From: Ginglymostoma cirratum
Taxonomy: Eukaryota
Assembly (NCBI GenBank): GCA_024137785.1
Contig: JAHRHZ010000013.1
Span: 4,431,782-4,495,781, forward strand
Length of the DNA stretch: 64,000 nucleotides
Direction: 5' to 3'
Position numbers and translations under genes: made by a program. This document shows, in pieces, positions 49,746-59,205 of this stretch. The notes beneath the pieces are model-generated. The model ran no database searches, had not been told where the DNA came from, and worked only from the letters and a program-made list of their open reading frames with translations. Every line of letters starts with the position of its first letter. Within the stretch, counting starts at the first letter, position 1.

Positions 49746-51614
49746 GTGGAAGGACTCTATGTTTCATAACACTCTGAGAAATGAATATCTATGATATAAT
49801 ATTGCCAAATTTGGCCAAAGAAAGAGAGCTTTATATTTCAATAGGATTCACCTTGATCCTGGAAGCATTGAACTGTACGCTTGTGGCTGTGGTTTAAACT
49901 TGGTTGTATTCAGGAATGGACAAGTGTCACTCCTGAATGTGCAACTTCTCTGCAGCTATTGGCTGTGCATCTTTGCAGTCTCAGGAGTTGCCATGCTAGT
50001 TTTACAGTGAGACAGATGATTGAATTCTGTCATAATTTGTCTGTTTGGCTTTTAGGCTAACAAGTAATTTCCTCTGAGGCAATGGCTCATGTCTTTTCAG
50101 AGAAACTCCAAGGCACTAGCTAAATGTTCACACCATAACAGCTACTCACTTAACAGGGATAACATTGGTAGCAGTAAATGAAAGACAATGACACTCGAAG
50201 GAGAGAACCATTAACAATTTTGCTAATGTGGTTACCAGGGAGGAAAGTTGGGTCATTTGACATTTAGTGGGAATAAATTTGAAAAACCAGAGCGTTTCTC
50301 TCATGTGAGCTGTTTGCATTTATTCTGAAGGTGAGAGTTGACGGGACTCGGGCAAGGGGTTTATGAACATGGTTTACTGTAGAGAAAAAGGAAAGAGGTT
50401 CTCTTTGCTTTCTGGGCTTATCCTTAAAATAGTGAACAGGTGAAAGCAAAGGATCCAAAGGACACAACACAGCTCCAATATGGCTGATGGGAGTACCTGC
50501 CATCACCAGCTTTAAACAGTTACAGGTCTGATAAACTAATGCTCACGCACCACATGTTGAATTAAAAATTCTACACCAAATCACATTAAGCCACAGTGTT
50601 AATTATTTTTCAAACAATACAACTGGCTTCCCACTGCAGGGTAACTGTAATACTTCTGTCACTGGTACAATATCAACCCAACATCATACCATCGGGGTTC
50701 TCCTCTCATACGCTCCACTCTATTCTCTGCCCACCAGATAATTAATACCACTGTATTAATTATTGGATTTTCAACGTAATTTCAACATGACAGTAGTACT
50801 ATAGGTTTTCAGCTTCAGGCATTGTAATTTTTTTTTGTTTTATAACTCAACTGAACAATTTAGTACTGCAGAACTCAAGTAAAATTAATATTTGCATAAA
50901 AACTCATCTAGGTGTAGACGAAGAAAACAGTGGCAAAATAAGAAATTAAGAAATGTGTTTGTACATATTAAAATTAAATGTGGACCTGTTGCATTGTACA
51001 CTGAGATGAATGTGTAATTCCAATATCTTATGCCATCAAGTTATGATCTGGAATGCCTGATCTGAAAGGTTGCGGAACCAAATTCAGTGACAACCTTGAA
51101 AAGGGAATTTGTTCTACAATTGAAAAGGAAATGATTGTGGAGCTATAGGGACAGAACAGAGGAAGGGAATTAGTTTAAAAAAAAACTCTTTCACAGAACC
51201 AGCAAAGTCACCACGGGCCTCCTTCTGAGCTGTAATGTGGTATATAAACACAGTTAGAAATGAACGAGGTGTAAAGGGTGCCGGTGTAATTTTTAAAAAA
51301 TTTCTAAATGTATTGACGTCTTCAATACTCAGTGCAGTTGCTTCACTTTGAATTCATTGTGTTCGACCCTTTATTAAATGCATTTCTTTATTAATATTTC
51401 CTATAATGACCTGTTTACCTAGAGTTCTTCCTGCATCTATTTGCATCCATGTCTGTAGTCTGTAGTCTCAGAACAATGATAATTGCTTCTATTTCCAGTT
51501 TTTATTTGTTTGTTTATCACTTTCATCTCCTCTCCCTCCTTTCTTCATTCCTCCTTCCATTTTTCACCTTGAGGGTAAATGGTACTTTCAAAAAAAGCAC
51601 TCTAAATTTTGGTT

Positions 51615-52800
51615 AACAAGGTGGATGAACACAGCAGGCCAAGCAGCATCATAGAAGCAGGAGAGCTTGACGTTTCGGGCCTAGACCCTTCTTCAGAAAT
51701 GGGGGACGAGAAGGGGGTTCTGAAATAAATAGGAAGAGAGGGGGAGGCAGATAGAAGATGGATAGCGGAGAAGATAGGTGGAGAGGAGACAGACAAGTCA
51801 AAGAGGTGGGGATGGAGCCAGTAAAGGTGAGTGTAGGTGGGGAGGTAGGGAGGAGATAGGTCAGTCCAGGGAGGACGGACAGGTCAAGGGGGCAGGATGA
51901 GGTTAGTAGGTAGGAGCTGGGGGTGGGGCTTGAGGTGGGAGGAGGGATTAGGTGGGAGGAAGGACAGGTTAAGGAGGCGGGGACGAGCTGGGCTGGTTTT
52001 GGGATGCGGTAGGGGAGGGAAGATTTTGAAGCTTGTGAAGTCCACATTGATACCATTGGGCTGCAGGGTTCCCAGGCAGAATATGAGTTGCTGTTCTTGC
52101 AACCTTCGGGTAGCATCATTGTGGCACTGCAGGAGGCCCAGGATGGACATGTCGTCTGCGGAATGGGAGGGGGAGTTGAAATGGTTCGTGACTGGGAGGT
52201 GCAGTTGTTTAGTGCGAACCGAGTGTAGGTGTTCTGCAAAGCGGTCCCCAAGCCTCGGCTTGGTTTCCCCGATGTAGAGGAGGCCACACGGGAACAGCGG
52301 ATGCAGTATACCACATTAGCAGATGTGCAGGTGAACATCTGCTTGATGTGGAAAGTCTTCTTGGGGCCTGGGATGGGGGTGAGTTGGGAGGTGTAGGGGC
52401 AGGTGTAGCACTTCCTGCAGTTGCAGGGAAAAGTGCCGGGTGTGGTGGGGCTGGAGGGGAGTGTGGAGCGGACAAGGGAGTCACGGAGAGAGAGGTCCCT
52501 CCGGAAGGCAGATAAGGGTGGGGAGGGAAAAATGTCTTTGGTGGTGGGGTCGGATTACAGATGGCGGAAGTGTCAGAGGATGATGCGTTGGATCCGGAGG
52601 TTGGTGGGGTGGTACGTGAGGACGAGGGGAATTCTGTTTTGGTTGTTGTTGCAGGGAGGGTGTGTGAGGGATGAGTTGCGGGAAATACGGGAGACACGGT
52701 TGAGGGCGTTCTCAACCACAGAGCAGGGGAAGTTCTGGTCCTTGAAAAATGAGGACATCTGAGATGTACGGGAGTGGAATGCTGCATCCTGGGAGCAGAT
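51615..52800 (-). mobile_element. Neptune-type PLE, 5'-truncated and mutated; same family as 246-1430
   Basis: Near-identical to 246-1390 on the minus strand (GIY-YIG region with frameshift and stop); hammerhead core at 51669-51696. Confidence 0.92.
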
Positions 52801-53062
52801 ATCTCCCTCTCCTTCCTGGACCTCTCTGTCTCCGTCTCCGGCAACCACCTAGAAACTGATATCCATTTCAAGCCCACCGACTCCCACAGCTACGTGGAAT
52901 ACATCTCCTCCCACCCACCTTCCTGCAAAAAGCCATCCCCTATTCCCAATTCCTTCACCTCTGCTGCATCTGCTCCCTGGAAGAGGCATTCCAATCCCAT
53001 ACATCTCACACCTCTACACCTTTGTTATCTCAGATTCTCCAGCATCTGCAGTTCCTACTATC
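52801..53062 (+). mobile_element. Inverted 5' segment of the PLE (RT motif E region) joined to a terminal-repeat end
   Basis: LSFLDLSVSVSGNHLETDIHFKPTDSHSYVEYISSHP; possible TSD TCTAAATTTTGGTT (51601-51614) / TCTTAATTTTCGTT (53063-53076). Confidence 0.85.
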
Positions 53063-54135
53063 TCTTAATTTTCGTTGATCTTTGTGCACTTCTGTTGCTA
53101 TTCTAGGCTTGACACTGTCTTGGGAAATCCTACAGCTTTGCTCCATACCACTTTTGGCATTCCACAAAGGACTCATTTAGACATTCCTTAATCTACTTTT
53201 GTGAGCAGCAGCGTTAAATACTTCTCCATACTACCTCACTAATATTCCCACCAAACATGCCCAGTGGAAGCTAATCGTGATCATTTCCTCTGCATCCCAC
53301 AAATGCCTCTTTATGGACACTTCAAGCAGATAGACTATCCTCACACCTCACCACCTCTTCTTTCAGACGAAGGCCATTGCTGTCTATGGGTTCATTGAGT
53401 TTGGCTGCACTTAAATCAGGGCCTTGACAGAAACTTGTCTGAGGGATGATTACACTTTTCTGATAAATAAAGACCCAAACCTTTCGATAGAATCAGATCC
53501 TCTCATTACAATGCAGATTAGACAAAGCATTATCTCCTCCGGTTACTCTGTTCTTTCTGGATAGTCTTCTAATGTGAAATCATTCCAACCTCAGTCAGAA
53601 TAAGGATCCTTCTAGGGAGCCAAGCAGAGGAGCTATGCAGAAGCCACACCCCTTTTGTAGACACTGGCTGCTGTCTTCTTTGAAAAGCTATAAGGGGAAT
53701 GTATAAAGCGATAGGGTGACAGGATGGTAGGATGGTAGCTGGGTGGAGTGGCACAGTCCAAGAGTGGCAAGGTGGTAGGTGACTGGTGTAGCAATTGGAT
53801 CAGGTGGCAGGAAGGTAGAGAAGTGAAAGGAGGTGAGGTGAAGTTGGTGGAGCAGGTTTGAGGGTTGGGGTGGGTATGGGTAAAGCAAGACGTCTGGAGA
53901 AACCCAGGGATTCAGGCAGGGTGGGTTCTAGAGAGATGTCAGAGGGTAGAGTGGAGTCAGAGAATTGTGGGTTAGTAGGAGCATATGGGGTCAGGAGGCT
54001 GTTGATTGATTTAGTGGCCAGTGAGTTTGGTTGATTGAGGACAATGGGATAGAGTTTGGAAGGGTCAGTTGTACAGTTATCAGACATTAGACAAGGGTTT
54101 TACTGCTTGCCATTTCGTGGCTAGCTATCCAGGTC

Positions 54136-57039: not shown

Positions 57040-57830
57040 ACACCATAAGAAATAGGAACAGGGGTAGGCTAAGATAACAAGGTGTGGAGCTGGATGAACA
57101 CAGCAGGCCAAGCAGCATCATAGGAGCAGGAAAGCTTGACGTTTCGGGCCTAGACCCTTCATCAGAAATGCATTTCTGAGCAACCTGTTTAACCATTGCT
57201 CAGAAATGCATTTCTGATGAAGGGTCTAGGCCCGAAACGTCAAGCTTTCCTGCTCCTATGATGCTGCTTGGCCTGCTGTGTTCATCCAGCTCCACACCTT
57301 GTTATCTCGGATTCTCTAGCATCTGCAGTACCTATTATCACAGGAGTAGGCTGTTCGGCTCCTCGAGCCTGCTCCACCACTCAACAGGATCATTGCTGTG
57401 TTTTTCCTGTAACCTTTGATTCCTCAACTGATCAAGAATCTATCTCAGCCTCAAATATACATGAGGACTCTGCTCCCATAGCTGTCTGTGACACGGAGTT
57501 TAAAAGGCTTTCGGACCTCTGACAGAAGAAAGTCATTTTCATCTCAAGACTTAAATTGGCATCTCTGGTCCTAGAACCCTCCCGTGAGGAGAAGCATCCT
57601 CTCAACGTTTACCCTGTCAAGCATCTTAAGAATCCTATATGTTTCAATAAGGTTACCTCTCATTCTTCTAAACTGCATTGAGTAGAGTCCCAACCTGTTT
57701 AACCATTGCTCATAAGACAATCCCTCCATGTCAGGGATCTAATGGATCTTCTATAAACTGCCTTCAATGAAATAACACCTTTCCTTAAATGAGGGGACCA
57801 AAATTACTCTCAATACTCCAGATGCCTCAG
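57040..57830 (-). mobile_element. CR1 3' fragment hosting the 57071-57339 insertion
   Basis: ataagaaataggaacaggggtaggc 3' end; ctcattcttctaaact; ggggaccaaaattactctcaatactccag. Confidence 0.8.
57071..57339. mobile_element. Near-perfect fold-back pair with two intact hammerhead cores and 13-bp TSD
   Basis: Cores at 57138-57165 (minus) and 57214-57241 (plus); ACAGGGGTAGGCT (57058-57070) / ACAGGAGTAGGCT (57340-57352). Confidence 0.9.
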
Positions 57831-58611
57831 CCCTATTCAAATTGTTATTTCCTCTTCCTCTAGCTGTTCACCAAGTAATGATCACATTTCTCTTTTTCCC
57901 AAGTCTGATAGACTCAGGCTCGAGTACATTTGGCAGACAAGTGGTTTAGCCATTCACATCTGCCTAGATTACATTAAGCTCTATGGGTTCAAGCATGGTG
58001 GGGTGTATGTCTCCATTCAAAATTGCCTTCATATGCTTCAGTCCTGTTTCCACCACCTGCAGCTTCAACAAGTTTGAACAGCTCTGAGTCATTAAAATTT
58101 GAAACCATTTAATTAGCTGCCCCTGCTGCTTCCCTCTCTGTCCTTTGGTTATGAGGTCAAACGTTCCTGAATGTCATCCCTTGACCTAGCATTGAACTCT
58201 AATCTTTCTCTAGTTTTTCTACTATCTCCTCTCATGCCTTTTCTGAGCTTGTCTTGTTCCTGAGACCCTCCTCATGATTCCTTACCTGTATTCCCACAAA
58301 TTCCCTTTGATTCTGCCATTTCCTGATGTTATGAACTGTTCTCTCACCTCAGGTATCGAGCGATCTTCCTCCAAATCTGCTGTTGTCACATATCTGCTCA
58401 AAACCAATTCTTAATCCCTTCCATTCTTCGGATTTATAATCTTTCTTTTTTTCTTTAAAGGTCTTGGATATGTTCTAATTGCCTAAATCCATGCCCATCT
58501 TAGCTGAAACTCTTATATTTTGCACTCTCCAATCTGGTTTCTGTGAGAATCTAAGCTCTAGAACTCCTTTTCTAAATGCCTTTGCCATTGTCATGCCTTC
58601 TCTCCTTCAGC

Positions 58612-59205
58612 AAAAATAGAAATTGCTGGAAAAACTCAGTAGGTCTGGCAATATCTGTGGAGAGAAATCAGAGTTTACGTTTTAGGTCCAGCAGTGACCC
58701 TTCTTCAGAGATGACTGTAGAATACAGCTAAGGAATCACAAGGAGGGTCTCAGGAAAAAGACAAGCTCATAAAAGACATGAGAGGAGATAGTAGAGAAAC
58801 TAGAGAAAGAAACTAGATGGAGAGATATCAGAGATTATGTTTTAGGTCCAGTAGTGACCCTTCTTCAGAAATGACAGTAGCTAGGAGAAGATTAATATTT
58901 ATGCAGAAGATAGGGTGGGGGTGGGGTGTCGGGGCTGGTGGAAATAGAGCCCAAAAGAGAGAGAAAGATAATTGAACAGAAAAAGAATTGGGTAAAGGTC
59001 AGCCTGGGAGAATGAATAGCTGCTGATGGGGTCCATTAGTAGCTGACAACGGGTTGTGTGTGGTGGCAGCCCATGTGGTGTCAAGGCCTAGCCTGAACGC
59101 CTTCTTTCAAGTCATTACCCCAATCCCCACACACCAGGCTGAGTTTTTCCAACAATTTCTGTTTTTGTTTCTGCTTCCAACATCCACAGTTCTTCAGTTT
59201 TTTTC
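58612..59205. mobile_element. Older-family PLE-derived element with duplicated core and captured flank
   Basis: Two copies of gttttaggtccag[c/t]agtgacccttcttcaga (~58679 and ~58839); inverted terminal piece at ~59130-59205. Confidence 0.7.

Follow-up and report, generated by a model that had tools for sequence, protein, structure and literature searches.

The closest described relatives of the insertion analysed here are the inverted-pLTR insertions of Penelope-like elements (PLEs). In passages of PMC3846280 and PMC8557442 these are described as inverted, 5'-truncated copies: the pLTR arms lie head to head, one end carries a tail of 30-40 nt, the pLTR contains a hammerhead, and the insertion shows a junction palindrome and a target duplication. 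All of these features recur in the insertion at positions 57072-57339 of the window (the whole 64-kb stretch of Ginglymostoma cirratum DNA that was analysed). Parts of PMC2377424 and 10.64898/2026.07.22.740005 supply general background. How PLE inverted structures originate is still treated as open in passages of PMC8557442 and PMC11167929. Passages of PMC3846280 describe captured host DNA, either in long spacers or lying between solo pLTRs, and do not derive it from the neighbouring sequence. Flank-templated filler is familiar from LINEs, both as extra nucleotides at the 5' end of ZfL2 insertions (PMC4245944) and as templated insertions of somatic L1 (10.1101/2024.08.27.596794), as far as passages of these sources describe it. 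The inverted layout of PLEs and the flank-templated type of scar are both already known; in the literature searched, mostly the main texts of openly accessible papers, the inverted junctions of PLEs were not found to be reported with filler templated by the flank. Unlike the known inverted-pLTR PLEs, the unit described here is a short insertion of about 270 bp that has no ORF and holds at its junction a copy of DNA from its own neighbourhood.

The features of this insertion are collected in Table 1. The first-pass annotation had described a hairpin with arms of ~110 bp and a 12-nt loop, a 22-nt identity between its centre and a host repeat, and a self-palindrome on each side of this filler. 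All three descriptions hold: the arms (57072-57183 and 57196-57307, 112 nt each) are complementary at 112/112 positions around a 12-nt loop, the 22-nt identity is exact, and the palindrome is present at both positions. The one-sided tail of 32 nt and the 13-bp target duplication go beyond that description. The donor of the filler begins 351 nt past the end of the tail at 57339, and comparison of the centre with the rest of the 64-kb window yields this donor as the sole match longer than 12 nt. It lies in a host LINE that we tentatively take to be a CR1, since the minus-strand frame 57571-57738 resembles the CR1 C-terminal motif. The tail-less arm stops at the TTGTTATCT site, which is the same terminus as in other copies, and the filler-free head-to-head join that corresponds to the flanking palindrome is common genome-wide. 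The G at 57180 is absent from the donor and absent from the element.

Table 1. Positions in the window of the features of the fold-back insertion and of its filler donor
Feature	Position	Strand	Remarks
Left TSD copy	57058..57070	+	13 bp, 1 mismatch against the right copy
Tail-less inverted arm (pLTR front end)	57072..57170	-	Minimal hammerhead core reads outward
Left 16-nt palindrome CAGAAATGCATTTCTG	57163..57178	.	Equals the sequence of the filler-free head-to-head join
Four bases GCAA	57180..57183	+	Complement TTGC at the far end of the filler itself; probably a short snap-back
22-nt filler	57181..57202	+	Identical to 57691-57712; last 3 nt (TCA) common to the element end
Right 16-nt palindrome CAGAAATGCATTTCTG	57201..57216	.	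Second copy, other side of the filler
Direct arm (pLTR front end)	57209..57307	+	Hammerhead core 57214-57241, predicted cut after 57241
PLE tail, 32 nt	57308..57339	+	Right arm only; compare passages of PMC8557442, PMC3846280 and PMC11167929
Right TSD copy	57340..57352	+	13-bp direct repeat partner of 57058..57070
Filler donor	57691..57712	+	Within a decayed host LINE (presumably CR1-like) on the minus strand

The arm represents that end of a Penelope-like retrotransposon which carries the hammerhead. In longer copies a pyrimidine-rich 3' region lies upstream of the arm and is itself preceded by an ORF. One such copy (L198) carries a 514-aa frame with a GIY-YIG match that passes the curated Pfam cut-off (E 4.1e-5) and an RVT_1 match that falls short of it (E 1.7e-4). 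In this frame the RT precedes a C-terminal GIY-YIG, and the frame is followed by the same hammerhead-bearing end; the arm sequence is linked in this way to an ORF for RT and GIY-YIG. The linker between RT and GIY-YIG in L198 and in others reads CX4CX2C, and a CX2-5CxxC linker at this place marks PLEs of the Neptune/Nematis type in passages of PMC8557442. By this definition the element is of the Neptune/Nematis type, the two being taken together. A decayed longer PLE copy lies on the minus strand of the window at 51600-53100, with GIY-YIG-like and RT-like motifs and with its RT-side end on the opposite strand, a 5' inversion; a Pfam search of five fragments of this copy gave no match. Elsewhere (L060), tandem units of 366 bp join the ORF start to the 3' UTR and hammerhead and resemble a retrozyme-like, internally deleted PLE.

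Hammerhead cores of the form CTGATGA...GAAAC-GTC are present in both arms and both point outward, so that the claim of two intact, outward cores is upheld in the sequence. Compared by eye with passages of PMC4209133, the layout is that of a minimal type I hammerhead, with the core, an unpaired base before helix II and a palindromic 15.2-16.2; helix I comprises about 3 bp, and an Rfam search of the 64-kb window gave no hit at the gathering score. Minimal PLE hammerheads are proposed to act as dimers and showed no cleavage as monomers (passages of PMC4209133). The first-pass annotation had further proposed that either strand yields one ribozyme. This holds at the level of sequence. Folding predictions place the read-through RNA in a single 112-bp duplex of -245 kcal/mol in which the whole core is paired, and a single arm folded alone is predicted not to adopt the hammerhead. 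The intact cores would be buried in duplex, and no function is implied.

A question is whether the 22-nt filler was copied from the flank or came from elsewhere. Across the 4.36 Gb of the genome there are 7 exact copies of the 22-mer, 2 of them at this locus and 5 in other LINE-like contexts, and none of the 7 belongs to any other fold-back. Given six possible donors, the chance that one would lie less than 1 kb away is about 3e-6 by our own arithmetic. Because so few occurrences exist in 4.36 Gb and no other fold-back carries the 22-mer, the filler is neither a chance match nor a subfamily feature. A rival origin would be a non-local template, with a different member of the host LINE family supplying RNA or DNA, or descent from a propagating subfamily; the 5 other exact 22-mers and the very high contig depth of the donor repeat in a related species speak for it, but there are only 6 candidate donor loci in the genome, one of which lies at 351 bp, no second fold-back has the 22-mer, and other loci show a large local excess. 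Such an origin is largely refuted and hardly credible at this locus. The alternative that the 22-mer belongs to a consensus present in many copies is likewise excluded, since the centre is unique to this fold-back. A self-propagating fold-back mini-element, that is, a MITE- or retrozyme-like subfamily, was considered and rejected on the grounds that centres vary from copy to copy and that this one is unique.

Fold-backs of this PLE arm family are common in the genome, and their centres differ between copies. Searches with tight fold-back patterns covered three classes of centre: 0-9 nt (1407 matches), 22-50 nt (344) and 51-80 nt (115). Over these classes the total is about 1,900 or more, some loci being counted twice. 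From these, 140 loci were taken: for centres of 22-50 nt the first 30 matches listed and 60 of the next 70, and for centres of 51-80 nt the first 30 listed and 20 picked by eye as foreign-looking. The flank searched on each side measured about 1.4 kb at 60 loci, 2.8 kb at 60 and 4.8 kb at 20. Filler was called where at least 12 nt of non-element sequence remained after masking of element words, and a flank match was required to reach at least 32 bits. Such filler was found in 59/140 fold-backs, this locus included, and matched its own flank in 22/59 cases, compared with 28/8201 control pairs of a filler with another locus. Two of the matches (L090 and L126) were removed as captures, their whole fold-back centre being repeated across an N run. 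The 20 captures kept include this locus; the remaining 19 are 19/58 of the other loci, with 8/38 among loci not hand-picked and 11/20 among the hand-picked ones; in one of the 19 (L152) the donor sits in a common repeat. The genome-wide comparison of fillers with flanks that the first-pass annotation had proposed therefore supports copying from a local template, with flank matches at 19/58 other filler-bearing loci against the 28/8201 of the control.

Captured segments measure 22-82 nt over the 20 loci (24-82 nt in the 19 others) and derive from donors 61-3217 bp away, with a median of 645 and 14/20 within 1 kb. Donors lie to the left in 10 cases and to the right in 10, and 15 captures are direct and 5 inverted. 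At the filler ends that abut an arm, 14/26 have at least 2 nt in common with that arm, which is an upper estimate because the A-run of the arm is variable. No local donor was found within the 1.4-4.8 kb of flank for 37/59 non-element fillers. Many of these, inspected by eye, consist of scrambled or repeated pieces of the element's own ends, and three that were traced genome-wide gave, respectively, a donor 2.2 kb from a duplicate locus, a common repeat and no second match. Long local captures constitute perhaps a few percent of all fold-backs by rough extrapolation, and a large share of the long foreign centres.

Several other centres were observed in the same survey. In five loci (L076, L086, L119, L131 and L158) the filler comes from the start of the element's ORF, downstream of the tail and outside both arms, which suggests that RNA or another cDNA serves as template too. 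The centres of L040 and of G000:C141:2728025-2728206 are built of numerous slipped 3-5-nt repeats that look like the 5' end of the element, as from repeated realignment, and the fold-back G000:C221:734194-734365 contains three telomere-like AACCCT repeats in its centre. A distinctive centre is common to each of the pairs L038/L056, L049/L050, L088/L089 and L146/G000:C165:262496, the last with a donor nearby (2.2 kb) in the C165 copy only; such pairs may reflect segmental duplication or re-mobilisation.

A second and older local capture lies 1.3 kb from the fold-back at 57072-57339. There, a hammerhead-bearing insertion of another family (58611-59167) includes at 58720-58810 a stretch of 91 nt that repeats 58203-58293 in inverted orientation at 92% identity, followed by a 63-nt repeat of the insertion's own arm.

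The possibility of an assembly artefact at a palindrome was weighed at this locus and in the sample. N runs occur in 19 of the first 52 loci, many of them starting inside an arm, two loci (L090 and L126) show the same junction on both sides of an N run, and at this locus the filler and the arms are 100% identical to their partners. Against this, the locus contains no N, its TSD and tail are as in other copies, the G at the junction occurs in neither donor nor element, and the filler has diverged from its donor in 12/20 captures, as expected of aged duplications and not of an assembler product. The artefact is thereby weakened, only indirectly, by the TSD, the extra base and the diverged fillers elsewhere, and we regard it as very improbable. 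Among the sequencing runs listed as sharing words with the window, none contained half of them (best fraction 0.21), and no RNA run was among them. Four contig sets differ from the unique left flank at 14-16 of 340-368 bases and so come from a related species; these contigs break in repeats, leave the loop bin 57188-57195 uncovered, and neither confirm the junction nor show an empty site.

It is also conceivable that the filler was added after integration, when a filler-free palindrome broke at its centre, as a cruciform or at a replication stall, and was repaired from a local template. The 16-nt palindrome on either side of the filler has exactly the sequence of the filler-free join, itself a common form, and a duplicated palindrome is what the opening of two hairpin ends would leave. 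However, most other captures abut plain arm ends with no duplication of the palindrome, and the arms and filler at this locus are undiverged, which leaves little time between two events. Later repair would moreover be expected often to trim the arms, whereas the sampled centres keep their arm ends, a property that is partly built into the search pattern. We therefore judge later repair unlikely.

How do the two arms arise? A target duplication of at least 11 nt was found at 89/94 scorable loci, compared with 3/470 shuffled pairs, which indicates that every fold-back goes back to one insertion event at a staggered cut. One explanation is that a single cDNA jumps to the donor, folds back and copies some 112 nt of itself as the left arm. 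Consistent with such a whole-arm snap-back, the arms at this locus are 112/112 identical and the loop is closed by 3 nt of self-complementarity already present in the donor; snap-back of R2 cDNA has been reported (passages of PMC11371274), and self-priming has been proposed for PLE inverted junctions (passages of PMC3846280). In addition, arm variants match in most copies, with at most one diagnostic difference in 79/94, so that most arms derive from one RNA or one source. Snap-back predicts, however, that the tailed arm is at least as long as the other at the centre and that both carry the same variants. Among copies with a target duplication, the tail-less arm is longer on the centre side in 6 and the tailed arm in 3, and the arms carry different family variants in 7/94 TSD-bearing copies, including a 1-nt indel in 6 of the 7. 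This rules out a whole-arm snap-back for 13 copies, namely the 6 whose tail-less arm is longer and the 7 whose arms disagree. L053 was left out of the variant count for an internal deletion, L093 because it has substitutions only, partly at CpG, and L070 and L156 because no target duplication was found; from the length comparison L023, L093 and L094 were removed as chance 11-nt matches.

Whole-arm snap-back also leaves unexplained the fixed stop of the second arm 32 nt short of the tail end, a spacing that is the expectation for a second RT start according to passages of PMC11167929. In vitro, according to the same passages, the PLE protein of an anole cuts both strands and extends each of them, and two adjacent RNA start sites bound the tail. 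Given the discordant copies and this in vitro behaviour, two cDNAs, one per nick, are the simpler reading, and it is more likely that the arms are two cDNAs primed at both target nicks than that they are whole-arm snap-backs, which we consider improbable. This copy, with its identical arms, cannot itself separate the two. Of the snap-back synthesis proposed in the first-pass annotation, the part that survives is the few bases closing the loop (GCAA at 57180-57183 with TTGC), and snap-back is not needed for the left arm as a whole. Priming of two cDNAs resembles L1 twin priming as described in passages of PMC11702581, in that both nicks prime reverse transcription, the TSD is kept and end joining closes the inner junction; it differs in that twin-priming cDNAs represent different parts of the RNA, whereas here both represent the same 100 nt and thereby give a palindrome. 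A cap-derived G at the cDNA end was considered and set aside as evidence: G precedes the start in 56/215 ends and T in 4, but the excess is not counted because copying of the element's own end yields the same letters. One idea is that the arm ends mark a candidate transcription start with the initiator-like motif CCATTTC.

We consider it probable that the ORF-less PLE insertion at 57072-57339 was built from two cDNAs started at the nicks of a staggered cut, with the 22 nt at the junction likely copied via repeated priming at microhomologies. The anatomy, the 13-bp TSD, the local origin of the filler, its recurrence at other loci and the link to an ORF for RT and GIY-YIG are observed; the steps of synthesis that follow are a putative course of events. 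The element's endonuclease would cut both strands about 13-15 nt apart, and reverse transcription from two sites 32 nt apart would run off at the RNA 5' end upstream of the hammerhead. In bottom-strand terms, the tail-side cDNA end would then copy about 8 nt of its partner, prime on the donor via TGA/TCA (3 nt) and copy 19 more bases. Its terminal TTG would pair with CAA inside the copied piece (3 nt) and be extended by a few bases, after which the extended end would anneal to the other cDNA end and the gap would be filled. The fold-back via TTG/CAA would account for the G at 57180 and for the four extra paired bases. The simplest path has one difficulty: its template is the right flank's top strand, and 5' resection would take away precisely this strand, so that strand invasion or a more complex order would be required.

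For the steps that follow run-off, the most likely polymerase is Pol theta of the host or an enzyme like it. In passages of PMC7454005, Pol theta makes insertions templated at distant and nearby sites and by snap-back, with microhomology at start and end and with repeated priming on 2-3 nt. The present junctions are alike in these respects, with filler copied from near the break and microhomology at both ends, although the counts are upper estimates. They differ in that Pol theta copies 5-35 nt in those passages and 22-82 nt are copied here, and in that the ends here would be two cDNA ends with the TSD kept. The LINE fillers of ZfL2 and somatic L1, in the passages cited above, resemble the present case in that host DNA near the target is copied in during integration. 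In contrast, LINE filler lies between element and flank and the present filler between two element arms, and somatic L1 templates are typically no more than 15 bp from the site (passages of 10.1101/2024.08.27.596794) compared with 61-3217 bp, median about 645, here. A less probable alternative for the same steps is the element's own RT. We tentatively hypothesize, at a level well short of the preferred reading, that PLE integration routinely leaves two free cDNA ends opposite one another within an intact TSD, and that the telomerase-like RT of PLEs, instead of host repair, joins these ends through repeated realignment and through jumps onto DNA up to several kb away.

The insertion itself is a dead by-product, a repair scar with no function of its own. 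A filler copied from the flank shows that the inverted junction arises on the spot, separately in each copy, and is not inherited from a master element. The analysis adds a controlled count of such fillers, a scale for donor distances and two tests that weigh against whole-arm snap-back. Donor distances of up to 3 kb on both sides, with the TSD kept, set a scale for the neighbouring DNA that is open during integration, and the pattern matches, about 1,900 or more in a single genome, make the question testable by counting. If the RT of these elements does join the facing cDNA ends, thousands of mini fold-backs would constitute a germ-line record of an unseen step in PLE transposition.
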